Shown here one piece after another: positions 8,755-42,809 of a stretch of 64,000 nt of DNA. The notes under the pieces were generated by a model, which searched no databases, was not told where the DNA came from, and saw only the letters and a program-made list of their open reading frames with translations. Position numbers and translations under genes: made by a program. The DNA is taken from NCBI GenBank assembly GCA_902533795.1, contig CACAND010000001.1:238844-302843 (forward strand). Direction: 5' to 3'. The DNA is from an uncultured Candidatus Actinomarina sp. (lineage in GTDB: Bacteria; Actinomycetota; Acidimicrobiia; Actinomarinales; Actinomarinaceae). Position 1 is the first letter of the stretch. The number at the start of each line of letters is the position of its first letter.

Positions 8755-9390
8755 ATGTATTTTAGAATAACAATCCCAGCTCTACAGGATGGAAAAAAAG
8801 ATGAGGCTGTGTCTTTTGTAAAAGATAAAGTTATGCCTGAATTTGATGGTACACCTGGCTTGCTTTCAATGACAGCAGCCATAACAGGTGAGACATCTGG
8901 AATAAATATGTCGGCTTATGAAAATAAAGAAGCAAGTGACGCTATTGCGGAAAAAGTTCAAGCAACTCTAGCTGAGGCTGCATCATTTATGTCGGCACCT
9001 CCAGTAATTTATGAAGGTGAAGCTGTTTTTGGAAAGGTATACCAAAGCATTAGCAAGGAAGAGAAAAAACCTGGTTATATGAGATTGGTAGTGGGCGTAG
9101 CAAAAGAAACAGATGCTGTATTAAATTTCCTAAAAGAAAAAGTTGAACCTATTTATGAAGACTCTGAAGGCCTTCAGATAACTGGAGCATTGTTTGATGG
9201 CAATAGTGCTATCAGTTGGAATATATGGGACAGCCAGGAAGCTATGGAAAAAGCCGTAGAGAAATTACAAGCTGCTCTTGATAGCGAATCAGAAAGCGAT
9301 TTGTTTGATGGAGATACATTGGCCTACATGGGTCCTGTATATGCAGGTAAAGTATTCGTAGATTTTAATGAGGGTGAAAGCCCAAATTAA
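8755..9390 (+). CDS. Tandem dimeric alpha/beta-barrel (ABM/Dabb/NIPSNAP-like) protein of unknown function, family 'S'
   Basis: 211 aa made of two ~100-aa halves. The second half carries the ABM-like motif (ISWNIWDSQEAMEKA). Paralogous to 36972..37616, 38227..38880 and 38900..39541, with a shared C-terminal VDF.xGES. Confidence 0.55.
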   Translation: MYFRITIPALQDGKKDEAVSFVKDKVMPEFDGTPGLLSMTAAITGETSGINMSAYENKEASDAIAEKVQATLAEAASFMSAPPVIYEGEAVFGKVYQSISKEEKKPGYMRLVVGVAKETDAVLNFLKEKVEPIYEDSEGLQITGALFDGNSAISWNIWDSQEAMEKAVEKLQAALDSESESDLFDGDTLAYMGPVYAGKVFVDFNEGESPN

Positions 9391-9438
9391 GGCGTCTTTT
9401 TTTGTAAAATAAAAAAGAGTAATAACATAGGAGGAATT

Positions 9439-10056
9439 TTGTTAACAACAAAAGAAGCTCAACTTGGAAGTTTAATGGCAAAAATTGCAGCTTTAGGAAC
9501 AGTAGTTATATTTGCTGTTCAAGCTTTATTAATTGGACCAGATCAAGTTGGCTATAGTGAACAATATGGGGCAATCGTAGATATAGTTTCATTTATTCAA
9601 AGTTTTGGAATTTTATTTACTATATCTTTAACGCAAAAATTATTCGGAGATAACAATCCTTATTTTAGAATTGTTAGTGCAATTCTATTTGTAGCAGCTG
9701 TAATCCAATTAACTGGATCACTTTCCTCTACAGGGAATGCCAATAGTGTTTTCGAAAGCGTTTTGTCAACTGATCAGGTAAACTCTGTAGCTAATGTAGG
9801 GCAACTTGTTACATTTATACTTTTTGGTATTTGGGCATTATGTCTTATTAGTGCTGATGAAAATAATCTTGTGCCTTCATGGGGTAGGTTATCTGGTCAA
9901 GGTGCAGCATACTTGGTAATACTTGTTCAGATTGGTGCTTTATTTGGCTTGGTGCCGATCAATGCATTTGTGCCTGTATTTATACTTGGTGGAGTGATAT
10001 TGTTTCCAATTTTTGTATATGGAATCAGTGTTGCTTTTAATTCAACCGGAAGTTAA
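9439..10056 (+). CDS. Polytopic membrane protein of unknown function, family 'M1'
   Basis: 205 aa with a TTG start preceded by AGGAGG. About 6 hydrophobic segments. Shares LGSLMA, (D/N)xPYFR(I/V)V, (L/V)P(S/T)(W/Y)G and GGVILFP motifs with 39599..40213, and more weakly with 37616..38224. Confidence 0.55.
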   Translation: MLTTKEAQLGSLMAKIAALGTVVIFAVQALLIGPDQVGYSEQYGAIVDIVSFIQSFGILFTISLTQKLFGDNNPYFRIVSAILFVAAVIQLTGSLSSTGNANSVFESVLSTDQVNSVANVGQLVTFILFGIWALCLISADENNLVPSWGRLSGQGAAYLVILVQIGALFGLVPINAFVPVFILGGVILFPIFVYGISVAFNSTGS

Positions 10057-10145: not shown

Positions 10146-10745
10146 ATGAAAAATTTAAAATTAATTTTTCTAGTACTATTGTTTTCATGTATAAACGTAG
10201 GAACATCAAACGTGTCTGAAAATACTGAAAAAGCTTATTTTGGTGGAGGCTGTTTCTGGTGTATGGAACCGCCTTTTGAAGTTCTCGATGGTGTATTAGA
10301 GGCAACCTCTGGCTATATGGGAGGAGAAACAGAAAATCCAACTTATGAAGAAGTAAGTATGGGAAATACAGGCCATGTAGAAGTCGTAGAAATAGAATTT
10401 GACCCAAATATAATTACGTATTCAGAATTACTAGAGGTTTTTTGGAGAAATATTGATCCGACTGCCTTAAACTATCAGTTTGCAGATGTTGGGTCACAGT
10501 ATAGAACAGAAATTTTTACAGTTGGATCCCAGCAAATGGAAGAAGCACTTCAATCAAAAACTGATCTTGAAAATTCTGGAAAATTTGATAAACCAATAGT
10601 TACAGCAATTACAGAAGCGCCAACATTTTATATTGCGGAAGAATATCATCAGGATTTTTATAAAAAACAAAGTGCTCGCTACCAAATTTATGCTGAAGCA
10701 AGTGGCAGAAAAGGCTTTCTAAAGGAAACTTGGGGAGACGAGTAA
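10146..10745 (+). CDS. msrA: Peptide-methionine (S)-S-oxide reductase MsrA with N-terminal signal/lipoprotein-like peptide
   Basis: 199 aa. Catalytic motif GGGCFWCMEPPFE, preceded by the hydrophobic leader MKNLKLIFLVLLFSC. Confidence 0.88.
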   Translation: MKNLKLIFLVLLFSCINVGTSNVSENTEKAYFGGGCFWCMEPPFEVLDGVLEATSGYMGGETENPTYEEVSMGNTGHVEVVEIEFDPNIITYSELLEVFWRNIDPTALNYQFADVGSQYRTEIFTVGSQQMEEALQSKTDLENSGKFDKPIVTAITEAPTFYIAEEYHQDFYKKQSARYQIYAEASGRKGFLKETWGDE

Positions 10746-34851: not shown

Positions 34852-35352
34852 ATGAATAAAATTTTATCTGTAAAAAAAAGTAAGAAAATGAACTTCTCAA
34901 AGGATGAAGTTTGGGATGTTATTACAACTCCAAATTATTTAAATGAAACCCATCCCTTTTGTAAGGTTAACAATGCTATCTCTTGGCCAGGTGTCGGTTC
35001 AAAAGATACATTGGAGTATTTAAGCGGATTGACCTTCGAAAGAGAATTTACACACTGGGATGAAAATGGATATGATTTAATAATTGGTACGGCAAATGGA
35101 AGAAAGTCTAAGGTTCGATGGAGATTGACTGGGAATGATCAAGAATCTGAATTATCAATTCAAATAAACACATACCCTCTAAAAAATTTTCCCGGTCCAC
35201 TGTACGTGATACCGTTTGTGTTCCAAGTAAATCCTCAATTAAGAAAATATTTAGACTCTGTACTTGGAGGAATTGAGTATTTCTTAATAAACAAGAATCC
35301 AGTTCCAAGAAATCATTTTGGAACCCATAAGTGGTTTTCTGAGATTAAGTAA
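34852..35352 (+). CDS. SRPBCC (START/polyketide-cyclase-like) family protein (tentative)
   Basis: 166 aa. The N-terminal block (KMNFSKDEVWDVITTP) and the size fit SRPBCC proteins. Motif-level evidence only. Confidence 0.4.
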   Translation: MNKILSVKKSKKMNFSKDEVWDVITTPNYLNETHPFCKVNNAISWPGVGSKDTLEYLSGLTFEREFTHWDENGYDLIIGTANGRKSKVRWRLTGNDQESELSIQINTYPLKNFPGPLYVIPFVFQVNPQLRKYLDSVLGGIEYFLINKNPVPRNHFGTHKWFSEIK

Positions 35353-35716
35353 CTATCTCATCAATTTTAATAATTGATCTATTTTCGTTTGAGCCCCTTA
35401 TAAACATCTTTGACATTGAACCATATTTTTTGATTATTTTATTTAATGCTTCTTGTTTAATGTCCTCATCTTCAATTAATGATGCTTTTACATTAACTGG
35501 CTCTGATAAAGTACTACTTCCCATTTGATCTGTAATATAAATTGTTGCTTTGCCATTATTTTTAATTCTTTTTACTTTCCCTCCGGATTTACTGGATGTG
35601 ATCACTAGATAATTATCATATTTAGCAACCCATACGGGAGTTTTTACTGATGTATTGTCTTTTTTATAGGTAACAAGATTTATATATTCATGATCAGCAA
35701 AATCTAATAGTTCCAT
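35345..35716 (-). CDS. PPOX-class (pyridoxamine-5'-phosphate-oxidase-like), probably F420-dependent, small protein
   Basis: 123 aa. INLVTYKKDNTSVKTPVWV...GGKVKRIKNNGKATI matches the split-barrel PPOX pattern common in Actinobacteria. Confidence 0.55.
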   Translation of the reverse strand: MELLDFADHEYINLVTYKKDNTSVKTPVWVAKYDNYLVITSSKSGGKVKRIKNNGKATIYITDQMGSSTLSEPVNVKASLIEDEDIKQEALNKIIKKYGSMSKMFIRGSNENRSIIKIDEIVT

Positions 35717-35833
35717 AATTAAAAATAGTTTAACAAAAGTGAGGGTAGTTGAATTAATCTTTTTGCAATATAAGAATCAGAAAATACTAGAAAAAGTATA
35801 AATATCAGAATCAAAATGAGTCTGTAAGGTACT

Positions 35834-36949
35834 TTATTTAGATTCATTATTTTTTTTGTTTGTTAATCCAAACAGCGGTCGAAGAAATCTGAAATTTTTG
35901 ACAGCATGGTAAATTGTAAGACTTACGAAGCAGATTAAAAATAATATTAAAGGAAATTTTATTAAAAAGGGAATATTGAGATCTGAGAAAAGATACATAA
36001 TTCCCATTTGGACTGGCATGTGGACTATATAAACAGGAAATACCGCCTGTTTATAATATTGCAATTGAGAAGAATCTTTGTTTAAATATTTTGCTCCAAT
36101 CCCAAGTATTAAAAATATAAAATTAAATGATTCGAAAGCTATCAACGTATTTGCAACCTCAAACTCATTTACAAACCTGTTAATAAGAAGTGGTACACCA
36201 ATAAGTGCATGTGTGTTTATATTTTTTATGTTGTATTCCCAAAAAGTATCCCCTTGAGAGGTCAGAACTATTCCAATAAGAAACCATATGAAACCAAGTA
36301 ACAGGCCATGGTCTGTTCCATAGTATTCTGAATAACTATTGCCATAACCTATATCTTCTTTATAAGCTGTAAGATCTAAAAGGTATCCTTCTAAAATTAT
36401 TGGAATTGAAAATAAGAGAACTCCCCCTCGTATTTTCAAAATTGAATCAACAAATTTATATCCTCTTTTTTTGTTTGATATGAAACCAATTATTGGAATA
36501 AAAAGTAAACAATAAATTAATATATTTATCAAAAACCATAAATGTCCCCCAGTAAATATGGAAGTGATCAACACCCCTATGCTGTCATCTAAGCTCATGT
36601 CTCCATAAATGAATTGAGCAGAAATTATTATATATAAAGGAACAAATGTAACTGCTCCAAAAAGGTAAGGAATTCCTAATCTTTTAAATCTTTCTTTAAA
36701 AAGTTTGTCAACACCTCTATTTTGGTAGGAAAATCTTAGTGCAATGCCAGCAATTATAAAAAGTAGCGGGATCCTCCATATGTTGAATATGCTAAGCAAG
36801 CTCCATATATTATCTATTGGCTTATTGTTCGGAACAAAAAGAATCCACTTAGCTACAGATGTGAAAGATACAGCCAAATGATAAAAAATTAAGAGAAAAA
36901 GAGCAATAGATCTAAGTGCATCTATATCGTGTCTTCTTTCGTCGAACAT
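35834..36949 (-). CDS. Acyltransferase-3 family membrane O-acyltransferase
   Basis: 371 aa, about 10 TM. The N-terminal HDIDALRSIALFLLIFYH motif is typical of the family. Lies 22 nt downstream of the seven-gene operon. Confidence 0.6.
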   Translation of the reverse strand: MFDERRHDIDALRSIALFLLIFYHLAVSFTSVAKWILFVPNNKPIDNIWSLLSIFNIWRIPLLFIIAGIALRFSYQNRGVDKLFKERFKRLGIPYLFGAVTFVPLYIIISAQFIYGDMSLDDSIGVLITSIFTGGHLWFLINILIYCLLFIPIIGFISNKKRGYKFVDSILKIRGGVLLFSIPIILEGYLLDLTAYKEDIGYGNSYSEYYGTDHGLLLGFIWFLIGIVLTSQGDTFWEYNIKNINTHALIGVPLLINRFVNEFEVANTLIAFESFNFIFLILGIGAKYLNKDSSQLQYYKQAVFPVYIVHMPVQMGIMYLFSDLNIPFLIKFPLILFLICFVSLTIYHAVKNFRFLRPLFGLTNKKNNESK

Positions 36950-36971
36950 AGAATTGATTTTAAAAGACTAT

Positions 36972-37616
36972 TTAATTTATTGATTCACCGGACTTAAAGT
37001 CAACAAATTGCTTTATTGCGTAAGGATTTCCATAATAATCATCAAACCCATTCATCAATGGCATAAATTGTTCGTACACATTTCCATCAGCATTAAGTTT
37101 TTCGTCGAAATCATGCTTTGCGTCATGAGAAGTCCAAAATTCAAATAACACTAAATTGTTTTCATCAGATTTGAAAGCTCCGTAAGAGATAATACCTTCA
37201 TCCTCTTCAAGTTTTGGTATGTAGATTTCCTTTTGAAGATTCATGTACTCATCAGCATCTTTGACATCTAATTTTGCAAATGCTAAAAACATTGTCTCTT
37301 TTGAATCTTCAATTAATGAATCTTTCAAAGTCTTACCAGTAATCAATTCACCTTCATAGACTCTTGGAAAACTATCAAGAATATCTTGAATTTGCATTAA
37401 GTTTTCGTTTCTAATTTCTGCAAATTTATCTGCAGTCTCTTTGTCCTTCATGAATGCAATACCAAGATTTACATTATCTTTTGGGTTAAAGAATGCAATT
37501 GAATACATGTCATCTCTAAGAGCCTCTAAAGCCGGGAACCCTGAGGTTTCAAAAAAGTCTTTGAGCTCTTCAAGCTTCCCGTCTTTAAATAAAATGGTTA
37601 CTGCAACTGCATACAT
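36972..37616 (-). CDS. Tandem alpha/beta-barrel protein, family 'S' (copy 4)
   Basis: The ATG at 37616 overlaps the upstream stop (TAATG), giving 214 aa MYAVAVTILFKDGK.... Has the VLFEFWTSHDAKHDF motif and a C-terminal VDFKSGESIN like 8755..9390. Confidence 0.55.
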   Translation of the reverse strand: MYAVAVTILFKDGKLEELKDFFETSGFPALEALRDDMYSIAFFNPKDNVNLGIAFMKDKETADKFAEIRNENLMQIQDILDSFPRVYEGELITGKTLKDSLIEDSKETMFLAFAKLDVKDADEYMNLQKEIYIPKLEEDEGIISYGAFKSDENNLVLFEFWTSHDAKHDFDEKLNADGNVYEQFMPLMNGFDDYYGNPYAIKQFVDFKSGESIN

Positions 37617-38224
37617 TAGCTTGCGTAAGCTTTTGATATTGCAAAAAACCAAGCAGGCGTCAAAACTACTCCAAGAATTACATTTAATGGTATAAATGCT
37701 GCATCAGGAAATAATCCAGCAAGAAAAACTATAGTTACTAATCCAATTCCATAACCAACTGTATTTCCTACTGCTGGTCCCCAGGATGGCAAAATATCTT
37801 TTCCATATTTTGCAAATTGTATATTCCACGGTGCTATAAAAAGAAATACAGCAGGAGTTACGTAGAAAACAAAATCAGCAGCCATATCAGCTGTTAAAGT
37901 AGTTTCGTTAAATGCATTATGAACTGCAGAAGGAACAAGTGCAGTTACCACACCTACAGCAGAGACTGTGTAGGCTAACCCAATTGATCCTGTCAGTAAT
38001 GGTTTATCTTTATCGTCAAGAAGCTTTCCCGATAATCTAACAACTCCCATTCCAGCCATAAGCTGAAGGGCGCTAGATATTCCAATTATCGGTCCCCAAG
38101 TTTCATTGTAACCTGATGCATCTGGTCCTAATACAAATACTTGAATAAGAAAATTTGCAAGCAATAAAGTTAATGCTCCTAATGCAAATCTTCTACCAAG
38201 ATTTTTTTCTTCTGTTGTTATCAT
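37616..38224 (-). CDS. Polytopic membrane protein, family 'M1'
   Basis: 202 aa. Shares LG...A..L, GPD.SGY, LPSWG and the C-terminal pattern with 9439..10056 and 39599..40213. Confidence 0.55.
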   Translation of the reverse strand: MITTEEKNLGRRFALGALTLLLANFLIQVFVLGPDASGYNETWGPIIGISSALQLMAGMGVVRLSGKLLDDKDKPLLTGSIGLAYTVSAVGVVTALVPSAVHNAFNETTLTADMAADFVFYVTPAVFLFIAPWNIQFAKYGKDILPSWGPAVGNTVGYGIGLVTIVFLAGLFPDAAFIPLNVILGVVLTPAWFFAISKAYAS

Positions 38225-38226
38225 TA

Positions 38227-38880
38227 TTATTTACTCCATTCTGATAGTTTCCCCGCAGGGAAGCTAGCCATATTTCTCCAGATACTACATTCGCCAGTAA
38301 CGATTGTTGGGGGACTCTTAATGTAGTTTTGTGCATCAGCCATAATTTGTTGAAATGACTCTAACGACGCGTCAAGTGCTTCTTGGCTGTCCCAGTTACT
38401 TAAAGTAACGAACTTTCCTCCAACGTCAACTGCGAATGCACCAAGCAAACCTTCGGTTCCTTCATATCCTGCATAAACAGTATTTTGTAGCCAATCCATG
38501 CCCTCATCATATTTTTCTTCAATATATTCTGAACCATATCCAATTCGAACAACAAAAGATTGCCCTTCTCTATCGCCTTTCATAATATTTACATATTGCT
38601 GACCAGCAGTCATTGGTCCAAACGAAATCTCAGGTGGTCCCGTGACAAAGTCTTTTAAACCTCCAAGAGCTTCTGCTAATTGTTCACTTGATCCGTTCAT
38701 TGAATCTTCGCTCAACCAGGTTGACCAAGACATAAGCTGACCATCGCTATTTTCACACAATGCAACTTGCAATAATCCAGGTATTCCTATAAATTCGTCG
38801 ACTTTTTCTTCTGCGAAAGACATCGCATCATCCATTTTTCCTTCTTGAATAGGTACAAGTGTTAATCTAAAAAATAACAT
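38227..38880 (-). CDS. Tandem alpha/beta-barrel protein, family 'S' (copy 3)
   Basis: 217 aa. Has MLFFRLTLVPIQEGK..., LMSWSTWLSEDS and VTLSNWDSQEALDAS motifs. Confidence 0.55.
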   Translation of the reverse strand: MLFFRLTLVPIQEGKMDDAMSFAEEKVDEFIGIPGLLQVALCENSDGQLMSWSTWLSEDSMNGSSEQLAEALGGLKDFVTGPPEISFGPMTAGQQYVNIMKGDREGQSFVVRIGYGSEYIEEKYDEGMDWLQNTVYAGYEGTEGLLGAFAVDVGGKFVTLSNWDSQEALDASLESFQQIMADAQNYIKSPPTIVTGECSIWRNMASFPAGKLSEWSK

Positions 38881-38899
38881 TTATACTCCTTTCTTTTTT

Positions 38900-39541
38900 T
38901 TATAATTTTCCTACAGGAAAGTCAACATAATTTTTCCATACATTACACTCTCCGGTTAATTCTTGGGGTGCTTCTTTAATCAAATTTGCAACTGCGTCTT
39001 TTACAACTTCTGTAATCACACCAGATGCTGCATGTGCAGCGTCGTGATCAGTCCAGAAGTTAAAACTAAAGCCCGTGTCATTATCTACTTTGCAAGCAGC
39101 AGATGCATAAATTCCATTAACATTTTCATATGCTGGATAAACAGTGCTTGTCATAAAAGCGCCAGCATCATCATATGTTTTACCATCCTGCATGCCACCT
39201 CCCATGACAAATCTTGCGAAGAAAGAATCTCCTCCATCTTTTGGAACCATAATGTACTGTTGAGCTGCAATCATTGGTCCTTCGAGAATTGTTGGCGGCT
39301 CTGTTATTAAGTCTGCCAAACCTGAAAGGTTTTGTTGAAATTCATCCATTGCAGCTTCCTTCGCCTCATTGTTAGCCCACATAGTCCAAGCCATGAGTTG
39401 TCCCTCATTGTTTATACAAGCTCCAGCTGAAAGTATTCCACTTACCTGATCGTAAACTGGAATTGCTACATCTCTAAAATAATTTAAAGCATCTTCAGTC
39501 ATGCCTTCTTTAGGGTTTGCTAACCCAAGTCTTACATACAT
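38900..39541 (-). CDS. Tandem alpha/beta-barrel protein, family 'S' (copy 2)
   Basis: 213 aa. Has MYVRLGLANPKEG..., LMAWTMWANNEAKEAA and FSFNFWTDHDAAHAA motifs. AGGAG SD present. Confidence 0.55.
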   Translation of the reverse strand: MYVRLGLANPKEGMTEDALNYFRDVAIPVYDQVSGILSAGACINNEGQLMAWTMWANNEAKEAAMDEFQQNLSGLADLITEPPTILEGPMIAAQQYIMVPKDGGDSFFARFVMGGGMQDGKTYDDAGAFMTSTVYPAYENVNGIYASAACKVDNDTGFSFNFWTDHDAAHAASGVITEVVKDAVANLIKEAPQELTGECNVWKNYVDFPVGKL

Positions 39542-39598
39542 TTTTCTCCTAACGTAATTTTTGCATTAGTAAAGTATGTTACAAAGCCCTGTTTCTGT

Positions 39599-40213
39599 TT
39601 ACGCCTTTGAAAATGCTGAGGAAAATGAGAATATAAATGCTGGAAACAAAATTACTCCTCCTAATACAGCTATCAAAATAAAGGCTCCTTCTGGTAAAAG
39701 TCCAAATATACTTCCAAGAGAAAACACCAATATTAAAATAGAACCGCCCCAGCCAGAATAAACTCCATAGGTTGGAAGCTCACCATTATTAACTGTAAGT
39801 ACACAAATTACTGCTATTCCAGCTAATAAATTCCAACCCCATGCATTAATATTTTGTAGTATCTGTATTTGATCAACTGTAAAGAGTGTTCCATCGTTAT
39901 TAAAGTACCCAGTTGCGTTAAAGCTATTTACCATATTTATAGCTATTACTGCAAAAAAGGCTTGAATAACCACTCTAAAGTATGGTTTATCTTCAGCATT
40001 GAAGAGCTTTAGTGAGAATGCAAGTACAAACAAAAAAGAAAATGCTTGTGCGTAATTTAAAATTGCGACTATTCCTCCCGTTGCTGAATCAAAACCAGGA
40101 CTACCTGGATCACCCAATGCAACCTGCACTGCAAATGATAAAAAGATACATGCCGCAGAAACGCGAGCCATTAAGCTTCCTATTCTTTTTTCACTATCAG
40201 ATAATGTATTCAT
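39599..40213 (-). CDS. Polytopic membrane protein, family 'M1'
   Basis: 204 aa. IGSLMARVSA, EDKPYFRVV, LPTYG and LGGVILFP motifs match 9439..10056. Confidence 0.55.
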   Translation of the reverse strand: MNTLSDSEKRIGSLMARVSAACIFLSFAVQVALGDPGSPGFDSATGGIVAILNYAQAFSFLFVLAFSLKLFNAEDKPYFRVVIQAFFAVIAINMVNSFNATGYFNNDGTLFTVDQIQILQNINAWGWNLLAGIAVICVLTVNNGELPTYGVYSGWGGSILILVFSLGSIFGLLPEGAFILIAVLGGVILFPAFIFSFSSAFSKA

Positions 40214-40223
40214 TTTTTTCTTT

Positions 40224-40772
40224 CTATTCTCTATTTCTCCAAGCCAACAATGGCCCTACTCCCAAACCTAAGATAAATGTTATCCAAAGAACTAATTGAA
40301 GAGGCATTAGAGCTTCGGGTGCTTCATATCCAAAAAACACTCCAGCTCCTGAAAAAATGACTCCCATTAATCCTCCAACTAAAAGATTGTATCGGTAGAA
40401 ATTTCGAATAACTCCTTCTGAGACCGCAAATAAAGAAACCATACTAAAACAGATAATGAAAAAAAATGGACCAAATTCATTTCCATCAGCTCTATCTCCT
40501 ATTGTTAAACAACTACCAGCAAGAACTGCTGCGCCAAGAAAGGTTGTACCTTCTTTCCAGTTTTCCGGTACGTTATCTCCCAGTAAAGGCTTCATTGTCA
40601 GAAAAATACTTGCAACACTAAACCCCCATAAAAAATCTAATAATAATTCTCCAGGAGGAGACTCCATTCCCATGATACCCGAAGTTACAAACCCAAATAG
40701 ATTGACTATTAAGAATAAGTAACCTGCTTGCAATCCATTTTCTTTATCTGTTGATGTAAAAAATGTTTTCAC
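40224..40772 (-). CDS. Polytopic membrane protein, family 'M2'
   Basis: 182 aa. MKTFFT start, DNVPENWK, and C-terminal LGLGVGPLLAW. Paralog of 40790..41362. Confidence 0.5.
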   Translation of the reverse strand: MKTFFTSTDKENGLQAGYLFLIVNLFGFVTSGIMGMESPPGELLLDFLWGFSVASIFLTMKPLLGDNVPENWKEGTTFLGAAVLAGSCLTIGDRADGNEFGPFFFIICFSMVSLFAVSEGVIRNFYRYNLLVGGLMGVIFSGAGVFFGYEAPEALMPLQLVLWITFILGLGVGPLLAWRNRE

Positions 40773-40789
40773 AATTTTTTTCCTTTCTT

Positions 40790-41362
40790 CTATTCCGTGC
40801 CCAATGACATTTTGTCACCCCAAGCAACATAGCTACCAACGCCTAGTCCAATAATCATTGCAATCCACCCAATTCCAAATAATGGTTGAAATGACTCTGG
40901 TAGTGTATAGTCAAAGAACAGCTGTGCTCCTGAACCAATTAAAATAAATGTAAAAGCAAAAATGCTTAGATATTCATAAACTGGTCTAAACACTCCAGTA
41001 CCTCTAGTCGTGAGAGCGAAAGTTAACGTGTTAAATGCCCATAAAAAATACATTCCAGCAAATCCATTTTCTCTAAATTCTGGAAATGATATTTCAATTA
41101 GCGTCCCAAGAATTATCACAGCACCTAAAATACCTGTAGCCATTTTCCAATAATCGGGAACTTGATCTTCTATTAAATAATATCCTCCAAGAATTATTCC
41201 TAAAAGTGTAAATGCCCAAGCAAAGTTGAATATTCTATTGATCCCTTCTGGCCCCTCATATAGACCGAATCCATTACCAATAAGATATAAATTACAACCA
41301 ATAAATCCAATACAATTTTGTCTTGCCAGTTGCCCTACCGGCTGTGTAAAAAATTTTTTCAT
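40790..41362 (-). CDS. Polytopic membrane protein, family 'M2'
   Basis: 190 aa. MKKFFT start, DQVPDYWK, and C-terminal IGLGVGSYVAW. First gene of the operon, preceded by an AGGAAGG SD. Confidence 0.5.
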   Translation of the reverse strand: MKKFFTQPVGQLARQNCIGFIGCNLYLIGNGFGLYEGPEGINRIFNFAWAFTLLGIILGGYYLIEDQVPDYWKMATGILGAVIILGTLIEISFPEFRENGFAGMYFLWAFNTLTFALTTRGTGVFRPVYEYLSIFAFTFILIGSGAQLFFDYTLPESFQPLFGIGWIAMIIGLGVGSYVAWGDKMSLGTE

Positions 41363-41489
41363 AAAACTTCCTTCCTAAAGTTTTTTTTAAAACTAAAAAT
41401 ATGAGCTTCCCCCATACTCAATCCGAGTATATAAACAAAATAAAGAGCGTGTTGGTTATTTCTAAATTTTAAGTAGATTTAACAATTTG

Positions 41490-42782
41490 TTAATAATTTG
41501 AAATAGCGTCCGTAAGACTATCAATAAGTCTTTGAATATCACTAATATTTACGCTTTCATTAGGGGCATGAGCATTTCCTTCTTCATCACCGGCACCTAC
41601 TAAAACTATCTCAGAGTTAGGGAACTCGTTAATAAAAACATTTGCAAAAGGAATTGAACCTCCTACACCCATATATGCAACTTCATTTTCCCAGTGTTTA
41701 TTAAATGACTCTATTAGTTTTGAACTAAATTCATTTTTGGGATCAACTAATATTCCTTTTCCTTTTGCTTCAGGTATGAATTCAACATTTGCATTAAAAG
41801 GAGTGTTTTCTTTTATATGTTTTTCAAGCATATTCATTGCATGATCAGGATCTTCAGTTGGAGGAAGCCTTAAGCTAACTTTTGCTTTTGCTTTAGGAAT
41901 GAGTAAATTGACAGATTCAGCTACAGGAGGAGCATCAATGGCCAATATACTTAATGCGGGTTCCAACCATAATCTTTTTGAGTAACTATCCATTTCAAAC
42001 AAGTTAACACCAGTAGAAGAAAGTGAGCTTTTTACAAATTCATCAGTTAGTTCAAATACATCTTGTTCGGTTGGTGTAAGGCCTTCTATAAGTAATTCTC
42101 CTTTATCATTATGAAAAGAAGAAATGATTCGACTTAAAATCATAAATGCATCTGGAACAACTCCTCCACCTAATCCAGAATGTACAGGTTCCATTTGTTG
42201 ATCAACAACTATGACACCGTCAACTAGTCCTCTTAGGGATGTCGTTATCGTTGGAACGCCTGACTTAATATTTCCTGAATCTGCAATAACAATTACATCT
42301 GCTTCAAGATCTTCTCTGTTTTCTGCAATAAATTCAGTCATGTAAGGCGAACCTATTTCTTCCTCGCCTTCAATAAAAATTTTTAAATTCACCGGTTGGG
42401 TTTCAAGTAGATTTTTAACCACTTCATAATGTGTCACTACTCCCGCTTTGTTATCACCAGAACCTCTAGCAAATAATCTTCCATCGATAATCTCGGGCTT
42501 AAATGGATCTGTGTTCCATTTATTTATATCACCTACTGGTTGTACATCGTGATGGGCGTAAAGTAATACTGTTTTTTTTGAAGGGTCAATTTCAGTTTGG
42601 GCGAGGACAGCAGGTTTACTGTTTTTGCTAGATACAACTTTTGAAATTAATCCTAAATCATCAAAAAGATCTGAGATAAAATTTGCAGATTCAATTACAT
42701 CTTTTTGATTTTCTTCAATTGAACTAATCGAGGGTATTTTCACTAAATTTGACAATAATTCAACAATATTAAGGTCTTTCAT
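41490..42782 (-). CDS. M20-family metallopeptidase (dipeptidase/ArgE/DapE-like)
   Basis: 430 aa. Has LLYAHHDVQPVG, W.TDPF, ARGSGDNKAG and EGEEEIGS motifs. Confidence 0.8.
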   Translation of the reverse strand: MKDLNIVELLSNLVKIPSISSIEENQKDVIESANFISDLFDDLGLISKVVSSKNSKPAVLAQTEIDPSKKTVLLYAHHDVQPVGDINKWNTDPFKPEIIDGRLFARGSGDNKAGVVTHYEVVKNLLETQPVNLKIFIEGEEEIGSPYMTEFIAENREDLEADVIVIADSGNIKSGVPTITTSLRGLVDGVIVVDQQMEPVHSGLGGGVVPDAFMILSRIISSFHNDKGELLIEGLTPTEQDVFELTDEFVKSSLSSTGVNLFEMDSYSKRLWLEPALSILAIDAPPVAESVNLLIPKAKAKVSLRLPPTEDPDHAMNMLEKHIKENTPFNANVEFIPEAKGKGILVDPKNEFSSKLIESFNKHWENEVAYMGVGGSIPFANVFINEFPNSEIVLVGAGDEEGNAHAPNESVNISDIQRLIDSLTDAISNY

Positions 42783-42809
42783 ATCTAAATATTGTAAAAG
42801 GTATATAAA

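Follow-up and report, generated by a model that had tools for sequence, protein, structure and literature searches.

Proteins of the ABM family (PF03992; ActVA-Orf6, YgiN, IsdG/MhuD) and the tandem structures 3F44, 3MCS, 5F9P and 9KDP are built as a pseudo-dimeric barrel of two ferredoxin-like lobes. A barrel of the same construction is predicted for a group of soluble proteins, hereafter abbreviated as S, that are encoded together with membrane proteins of two types, M1 and M2, in a stretch of 64,000 nucleotides (nt) from an uncultured Candidatus Actinomarina sp. (contig CACAND010000001.1, positions 238,844 to 302,843 of the forward strand), hereafter called the window. Few free-living bacteria of the surface ocean are as small and as abundant as Candidatus Actinomarina. 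The list of open reading frames (ORFs) and their re-translation define an array of seven tightly spaced genes of three paralogous groups on the minus strand (36972-41362). As in ABM proteins, S chains have about 210 residues, show no cofactor-binding motif and carry the motif 'EG...W.s.eA' in their second lobe. They differ from ABM proteins in their low identity (10-13%), in failing to reach a Pfam gathering score and in having no sequence match in the PDB. Moreover, the Asn/Trp/His triad of IsdG type is not conserved in S, and, unlike what is known of ABM enzymes, S genes are systematically linked to a private membrane family.

Other described systems resemble single parts of the locus. The AT3 gene that follows the array encodes, like OpgC/MdoC, the AT3 domain alone; the resemblance to these proteins is distant, however (70 bits versus a cut-off of 338), the gene is dispensable in many clusters, and partner genes of M1 and S type are not known in described AT3 systems. 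A second flanking protein is related to the PPOX-class FDOR proteins (split-barrel; TIGR03666, Rv2061 family), with PNPOx_N above threshold and Rv2061_F420 as best, but sub-threshold, match. In their possible mode of working only, the M proteins recall the S components of energy-coupling factor (ECF) transporters, six-helix proteins of ~180-210 residues with many divergent specificity types per genome or lineage; in contrast to these, M1 gives no Foldseek match to an ECF S component, no ECF genes (EcfT/EcfA) lie in the neighbourhood and the partner of M is a barrel rather than an ATPase module. Finally, the flexible islands of SAR11 and the island fGI1 of Actinomarinales share with the array a fixed position, a content that differs between close relatives and cassette-like replacement, whereas the array is made of in situ paralogues of probably two superfamilies, not of imported glycosyltransferase cassettes, and is not bounded by tRNA genes.

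The combination of S with M is new relative to two genomic studies of the order, an Actinomarinales paper of 2020 (PMC7771536) and a preprint of 2026 on complete genomes (bioRxiv 10.64898/2026.04.03.716425), neither of which mentions the cluster, and a literature search for operons combining ABM and membrane proteins in general retrieved nothing relevant. Our analysis supports the view that cytoplasmic ABM-like barrels are functionally associated with a private six-helix membrane family and that this association is conserved.

Organization of the array and linkage of S with M

The window contains nine S, M1 and M2 genes, which are listed below in transcription order for the array and then for the separate pair, followed by the elements upstream of the array.

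40790-41362, minus strand: M2a (subtype M2.1), multi-helix membrane protein of 190 residues (ORF list, BLASTP)
40224-40772, minus strand: M2b (subtype M2.3), membrane protein of 182 residues with GTG start, paralogue of M2a (BLASTP)
39599-40213, minus strand: M1a (subtype M1.4), six-helix membrane protein of 204 residues (AlphaFold2 model)
38900-39541, minus strand: Sa (subtype S.1), predicted cytoplasmic tandem ABM-like barrel of 213 residues (AlphaFold2, Foldseek)
38227-38880, minus strand: Sb (subtype S.4), predicted tandem barrel of 217 residues (BLASTP to Sa, Pfam)
37616-38224, minus strand: M1b (subtype M1.5), six-helix membrane protein of 202 residues (BLASTP, hydrophobic segments)
36972-37616, minus strand: Sc (subtype S.3), predicted tandem barrel of 214 residues, its start overlapping the M1b stop (TAATG)
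8755-9390, plus strand: Sd (subtype S.2), predicted tandem barrel of 211 residues (ORF list)
9439-10056, plus strand: M1c (subtype M1.1), six-helix membrane protein of 205 residues, TTG start, ribosome-binding site TAGGAGGAA
41466-41493, minus strand: promoter-like site TTAACA-16-TAAAAT, located where the upstream M20 gene ends (consensus scan, 10/12; a pattern match alone)
41363-41489, minus strand: 5' leader of the operon, 127 nt, ending in the ribosome-binding site AGGAAGGAAG (read directly)
41397-41419, minus strand: leader hairpin with a 9-bp stem and a GGAAG (Shine-Dalgarno-like) loop (covariation)

An earlier note made from the DNA alone had described seven packed genes of these lengths and in this order, and the ORF list, the re-translation and the sequence itself bear this out. 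The intergenic gaps from M2a to Sc are, in transcription order, 17, 10, 57, 19, 2 and -1 nt, the last being the TAATG stop/start overlap of M1b and Sc at 37616, which was read directly in the sequence. Shine-Dalgarno-like sequences precede most of the genes, Sc depending on the overlap instead. The ORF finder places the start of Sc further out, at TTG 37652; because its S orthologues all begin with MY(A/F/V) at an ATG, we retain the length of 214 residues. In nearly all of the genomes compared, M2a comes first in the operon. The Sd-M1c pair (8755-10056, plus strand), also recognized in the earlier note, is the fourth S-M1 pair of the window. The array ORFs are genes and not chance ORFs, since S and M orthologues are present in more than 40 species-level genomes and their ratio of nonsynonymous to synonymous substitution rates (dN/dS) lies between 0.06 and 0.23.

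Paralogy is readily detected by BLASTP. M2a and M2b share 33% identity (E 3e-23), M1a is 35% identical to M1c (E 2e-38) and 26% to M1b (E 2e-11), and M1b matches M1c at E 2e-21. Among the soluble proteins, Sa and Sb are 33% identical (E 7e-39), with E values of 2e-21 for Sa/Sd, 2e-16 for Sc/Sd and 1e-9 for Sa/Sc.

Given the gaps of -1 to 57 nt and one conserved leader with a covarying hairpin, the array is a single transcription unit. Its leader of 127 nt is long relative to the compact genomes of Actinomarinales (PMC7771536). In 34 related loci, a covariance model detects the leader a single time per locus, each time directly before the start codon of the first M2 gene, and it has a sole scoring site in the window (84.7 bits, the next best reaching 17.9). 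All hairpin positions are paired in 17 sequences, each from a different locus, of two genera, and five of the nine pairs change on both sides between the genera, a covariation reached by none of 500 shuffles; slid controls are paired at 27-57%. The hairpin sits ~35 nt upstream of the actual ribosome-binding site, and its stem sequences differ by genus yet always pair. A ribosome might use it as a standby site, or a regulator might bind to it. A known riboswitch or other cis-regulatory RNA was considered for the leader and rejected, as Rfam gives no gathering-score match in the window and none at E up to 5 in 35700-41600.

The linkage of S with M extends well beyond the window. In the loci compared, 52 of 56 M1 genes have an S gene within 150 nt, and 79 of 97 S genes are next to an M gene. 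The core pair S.2/M1.1 is retained whichever gene comes first and is located at one of two chromosomal sites, namely between panB and msrA in the genus of the window and inside the main cluster in the other genus; Sd precedes M1c in the window and M1 precedes S.2 inside clusters elsewhere. Further lineages have the minimal form M1-S.2-AT3-PPOX, and distant ones either S-M1-M1-AT3-PPOX (loci L136/L137) or S-M1 beside PPOX and msrA (L134). The earlier note had proposed a two-component unit of S and M1, to be checked by the gene neighbourhood in other genomes. The adjacency is indeed kept there, including the more distant lineages, but it is not obligatory: M1 loci without S and a lone Sd also occur.

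Folds and signatures of the S and M proteins

The AlphaFold2 model of Sa has a predicted local distance difference test score (pLDDT) of 94.4 and a predicted template-modelling score of 0.89, with two beta-alpha-beta-beta-alpha-beta lobes. Compared with the PDB by Foldseek, it matches the single-chain tandem 'putative monooxygenase' structures 3F44 and 3MCS (probability 1.0, TM 0.71-0.74), followed by the anthrone-oxidase-like 5F9P, PenE, sulfur oxygenase reductases and the marine-metagenome protein 2PGC; weaker fold matches are to coproheme decarboxylase and chlorite dismutase. By hhalign, the N-terminal half of S is homologous to the C-terminal one (E 1e-23). Model, fold search and half-to-half alignment agree on the dimeric alpha/beta-barrel (ABM-like) fold, as the earlier note had deduced from the motifs it quoted for S, which are present, and neither a signal peptide nor a hydrophobic segment is detected in S. 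We thus consider S, on the basis of the model, as a predicted cytoplasmic tandem ferredoxin-like barrel of ABM type in which each chain is a fused pseudo-dimer.

At the level of sequence the relationship is remote. No S member reaches the gathering cut-off of Pfam ABM (PF03992, 23.1 bits): in the window Sb scores 22.6 bits, the others 15.9-17.8 bits and Sd has no match. ABM is nevertheless the recurring sub-threshold Pfam match, found for 8 of 10 S subtypes with a best E of 6.5e-5. The S profile retrieves only spurious TPR matches among PDB sequences, and searches with S in NCBIfam, PADLOC and PHROGs found nothing. The positions invariant across the five aligned S subtypes (G, L, P, G, E, G, W, G) correspond to the ABM structural motif in the second lobe; in the same alignment no His, Cys or Asn is conserved, and Sb and Sd lack the His residues that occur in Sa and Sc. 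The S half is a new remote branch of a known superfamily. Sd, or S.2, is its most conserved type, with at least 70% identity in 35 species-level genomes.

The membrane half is of a different kind. The AlphaFold2 model of M1a shows six long helices (pLDDT 78), and six hydrophobic segments are found in M1b as well as in M1c. Foldseek comparison of the M1 model with the PDB yields a best E of 0.16, with nothing at E <0.1 and no transporter fold, and an internal 3+3 repeat was not detected in M1 or M2. M1 and M2 have no match in NCBIfam, PADLOC or PHROGs, and Pfam searches with 27 diverse M members produce only isolated chance matches at E >=0.0026 (HlyIII, DUF2871, GtrA and others), in agreement with the view that these membrane families are uncharacterized. 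An exhaustive profile search with M1 among 1.84 billion representative proteins returned 79 matches, ~15 of them full length and all of at most 212 residues; the named relatives are all annotated 'hypothetical protein' and come from marine samples. Conserved positions in M1 and M2 are mainly Gly and Pro, to which a conserved cytoplasmic N-terminal segment is added, and neither protein has a conserved His. As far as profile searches can tell, the M half is without known relatives outside the order.

The division into three paralogous families, which had been proposed at first sight, stands with respect to BLASTP paralogy but probably has to be reduced to two superfamilies. Broad profiles of M1 and M2 align over 180 columns with an hhalign E of 1.9e-6, whereas control values are far worse, namely 0.054 with a reversed profile and at best 0.024 among 30 column-shuffled ones. 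Because shallower profiles fail to show this match, we keep the distant homology of M1 and M2 as probable. The motifs previously listed for M2 are present; those listed for M1 (LGSLMA, PYFR(I/V)V, GGVILFP) are found in M1a and M1c but only loosely in M1b.

Conserved site and variable content across the order

The nearest relative of the array in a scan of species-representative genomes is locus L001, from the Candidatus Actinomarina single-cell genome AG-349-C02 (99% S protein identity), and further relatives of S and M in the genome scans all belong to Actinomarina or Actinomarinales records. Three genome scans and the exhaustive M1 search gave no homologues outside Actinomarinales, that is, beyond records of Actinomarina type. 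Cluster genes also appear in records labelled Cryomorphaceae, Chloroflexi, Marine group II euryarchaeote and Wenyingzhuangia (L005, L055, L111 and L133); these oddly labelled contigs are probably mis-binned or mislabelled. The Chloroflexi-labelled contigs, the sole ones among them for which it was measured, have a GC content of 33-34%; the window has a G+C of ~33%.

In 37 species-level genomes the cluster occupies one site, with an M20 peptidase gene, itself preceded by a MacB/FtsX-type permease gene, on one side and the PNPOx_N gene on the other. The earlier note had pointed to a local amplification, unusual in a streamlined genome. It is not peculiar to this genome: the cluster occurs throughout the order with a varying number of copies, which belong to old, discrete subtypes. 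Clustering at 55% identity defines 5 S, 10 M1 and 9 M2 subtypes, and individual loci hold 1-4 S, 0-2 M1 and 0-3 M2 genes in 32 distinct subtype architectures among 42 loci. The usual order is one to three M2, an optional M1, S.1, an optional S.4, up to two M1, then optionally S.3 or S.5, S.2 and AT3. Whole cassettes differ between genomes with flanks that are 92-98% identical. Thus, L001 lacks M1a and its M2b slot is held by a 39%-identical subtype, while L029 has M2a and M1a 98-100% identical to those of the window together with Sa and Sb of ~62% identity.

Conservation is ~0.9 or higher inside subtypes and low between them, and the dN/dS values given above hold for every subfamily, indicating purifying selection; diversifying selection or an arms race is rejected by the same values. 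The pattern is one of cassette turnover among old, specialized paralogues. A published survey counts ~40 paralogous genes per Actinomarinales genome (PMC7771536). Nine constrained and reshuffled S and M genes in a single window are a large share of this number and speak for a function that is paid for despite extreme streamlining. The array could serve to study how strains of a group that cannot yet be cultured differ in niche.

The 'gaps' of 350-900 nt in related clusters were inspected for decayed genes, an explanation that was rejected as tblastn finds no remnants in them; intact genes of further families are there. Four families absent from the window were seen in these gaps (L001:9315-9721, L016:6517-6863, L003:9316-9862 and L037:6779-7340). 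Two are soluble single-domain proteins, of ~118 residues with a weak DUF1428 match and of ~106 residues with a weak NIPSNAP match, both Pfam families belonging to the dimeric alpha/beta-barrel clan. The other two are membrane types of 175-180 residues, M3, which weakly aligns with M1 (hhalign E 1.6e-5), and M4, which is ambiguous. Single-domain barrels and M3/M4 in related clusters extend the theme of barrel plus membrane protein beyond the window.

Possible roles and neighbouring genes

Two genes downstream of the array enter the functional interpretation:

35834-36949, minus strand: AT3-family membrane acyltransferase, 22 nt after Sc (Pfam PF01757)
35345-35716, minus strand: PPOX-class (PNPOx_N) protein of 123 residues (Pfam PF01243, 30.7 bits versus a cut-off of 28.1)

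The AT3 protein has 371 residues with at least eight hydrophobic segments and belongs to the Acyl_transf_3 family (59.6 bits versus a cut-off of 31, residues 7-347). Its distance from Sc, already noticed before, is exactly 22 nt wherever both genes occur (14 loci), and the AT3 gene, which is found together with S and M in many lineages, is probably the last one of the operon. The PPOX-class protein scores best with TIGR03666 Rv2061_F420 (74.1 bits) and has no match among PDB sequences. Its gene adjoins S-M1 in two different genomic contexts, the second being that of the distant lineage L134, and Actinomarinales make F420 (PMC7771536). From its family matches, we regard it as probably F420-dependent and as a candidate accessory component.

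Our preferred, still tentative reading, to which we assign a probability of roughly 0.35, is that the array encodes a membrane-plus-barrel module handling a hydrophobic small molecule. This molecule would be hydrophobic or amphipathic, for instance a lipid-, quinone-, pigment- or aromatic-like compound; the M proteins would hold it in the membrane or pass it across, and the S barrels would bind or alter it without cofactor, as ABM-type oxygenases and isomerases do. The PPOX-class reductase, probably dependent on F420H2, could then provide an accessory tailoring step of reduction and the AT3 O-acyltransferase, where present, one of acylation; the old M and S subtypes would be specificity variants gained, lost and swapped between species in the manner of cassettes. 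For this scheme we infer the physical contact between S and M, the nature of the substrate and the chemistry. If barrel and membrane proteins cooperate, they would constitute a new membrane-associated small-molecule system.

Several observations weigh against such a module. M1 has no fold match to any transporter and no detectable internal repeat, M1 and M2 have hardly any conserved polar residues within the membrane, the invariant residues of S are, apart from one Glu and one Trp, for the most part Gly and Pro, and a ligand, cofactor site or catalytic residue cannot be named for S or M proteins. The F420 assignment of the PPOX gene stays below the cut-off of the curated model (84.9 bits). In addition, S is not required in cis: L058-L061 carry M1-AT3-PPOX without S, L055-L057 consist of three tandem M1 genes alone, Sd occurs without M1c in two genomes, and the copy numbers of S and M are not 1:1. 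Neighbouring M and S subtypes also recombine freely, as illustrated by L029 with M1a of 98% beside Sa of 62%, which argues against tight pair-specific contacts.

A bolder version, which we consider doubtful, is that M1, M2, M3 and M4 (the last ambiguous) form a membrane superfamily not seen before that pairs physically with cofactor-free barrels, in a new two-component membrane machine whose specificity subunits are reshuffled combinatorially between Actinomarina species. If true, this could explain the partitioning of niches or substrates in one of the smallest free-living cells.

It is rather unlikely, in our view, that the locus is a variable island for envelope tailoring, in which AT3 would O-acylate an envelope glycan or lipid, M would handle the lipid-linked acceptor, S would assist and cassettes would alter surface chemistry, for instance in phage evasion. 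The genuine AT3 membership, the M1-AT3 adjacency even without S, the many architectures at a fixed site with near-identical genomes differing by whole cassettes, and the fact that known flexible islands of the order are envelope islands (PMC7771536) all fit this idea. However, most second-genus clusters lack AT3 but retain M and S, the vicinity contains neither glycosyltransferases nor flippases, S is predicted to be cytoplasmic and GC is core-like; dN/dS is low and the M loops are not hypervariable within a subtype. Moreover, there are no defence or phage family matches in PADLOC and PHROGs and no viral homologues, IMG/VR containing no phage-borne copies of M1 or S.2.

Nutrient scavenging appears improbable as well. 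In this case the M types would be facilitators or secondary transporters for dissolved organics and the adjoining barrel the first, cofactor-free catabolic enzyme, an arrangement with the pattern that the clusters show, a variable membrane part and a conserved soluble part. In streamlined marine bacteria, the set of transporters typically varies from strain to strain. Islands bearing transporters have been noted in Actinomarinales (PMC7771536). Yet M resembles no transporter fold or family, has no internal repeat and few conserved polar residues in the membrane, and downstream catabolic genes are absent at the locus.

We give still less credit to the possibility that the genes have no functional coupling and that the locus is a hot spot of duplication and recombination, with S-M adjacency as a by-product of tandem two-gene duplication. 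This possibility accounts for the M1-only arrays, the isolated Sd, the independent recombination of neighbours and the unfixed stoichiometry, but hardly for a pair kept in both orders, at two sites and in distant lineages, nor for the single leader, the translational coupling and the single-domain barrel genes that join the same arrays. Even if uncoupled, the genes would remain a clear case of in situ paralogue turnover in a minimal genome.

The handling of heme or other tetrapyrroles, with S acting like IsdG/MhuD, the PPOX-class protein reducing or degrading the product and M moving the tetrapyrrole, is very improbable. Both the ABM and split-barrel superfamilies include heme-degrading members (PMC11602992), and the weaker fold matches of Sa point in the same direction, but its top matches are non-heme proteins, the catalytic Asn/Trp/His and the heme-ligating His of IsdG/MhuD are not conserved, and neither is any other His, Cys or Asn across S subtypes or any His in M1/M2. 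A heme role, which the earlier note had mentioned for ABM-type barrels elsewhere, is therefore unsupported for S. An immunity or defence array of orphan immunity-like membrane proteins against toxins or phages is hardly credible: it would agree with variable-copy arrays of small membrane proteins, but a toxin gene is absent, PADLOC gives no match at E <0.02 and PHROGs none, selection is strongly purifying, and toxin-antitoxin and CRISPR systems are not found in Actinomarinales according to the published survey (PMC7771536).

Some additional features of the surroundings were recorded. A conserved gene of 166 residues without Pfam or NCBIfam match (34852-35352, plus strand) is convergent with the PPOX gene, their 3' ends overlapping by 8 nt, and is present beside the cluster in most loci. 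The msrA gene adjoining Sd-M1c (10146-10745, plus strand) encodes a protein that starts with MKNLKLIFLVLLFSC; because this start resembles a lipoprotein signal with lipobox, the product is probably an exported methionine sulfoxide reductase. In L134, the S-M1 pair is flanked by msrA, the PPOX gene and a gene for an AhpC-type peroxiredoxin, surroundings that hint at an oxidative-stress neighbourhood.

The region between the cluster and the permease gene contains insertions in other genomes. A 3.2-kb insertion between the FtsX-type permease gene and the M20 gene of L001 (L001:2154-5303) is also found in the close relatives L002, L003, L030, L032 and L034 and is absent from the window, where the equivalent site is 42783-42809; its product in L001, the one translated, is a secreted protein of 1049 residues with PPPGG repeats and a high content of Pro, Gly, Cys and acidic residues. 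Genomes of the second genus have variable insertions on the M20 side of the cluster, between it and the M20 gene (L009:5084-6727, L014:2378-6762 and L059:6088-7799), which encode a luciferase-like, probably F420-dependent, oxidoreductase and a Pyridox_ox_2 protein, to which some add a PutA-like enzyme of 1104 residues.

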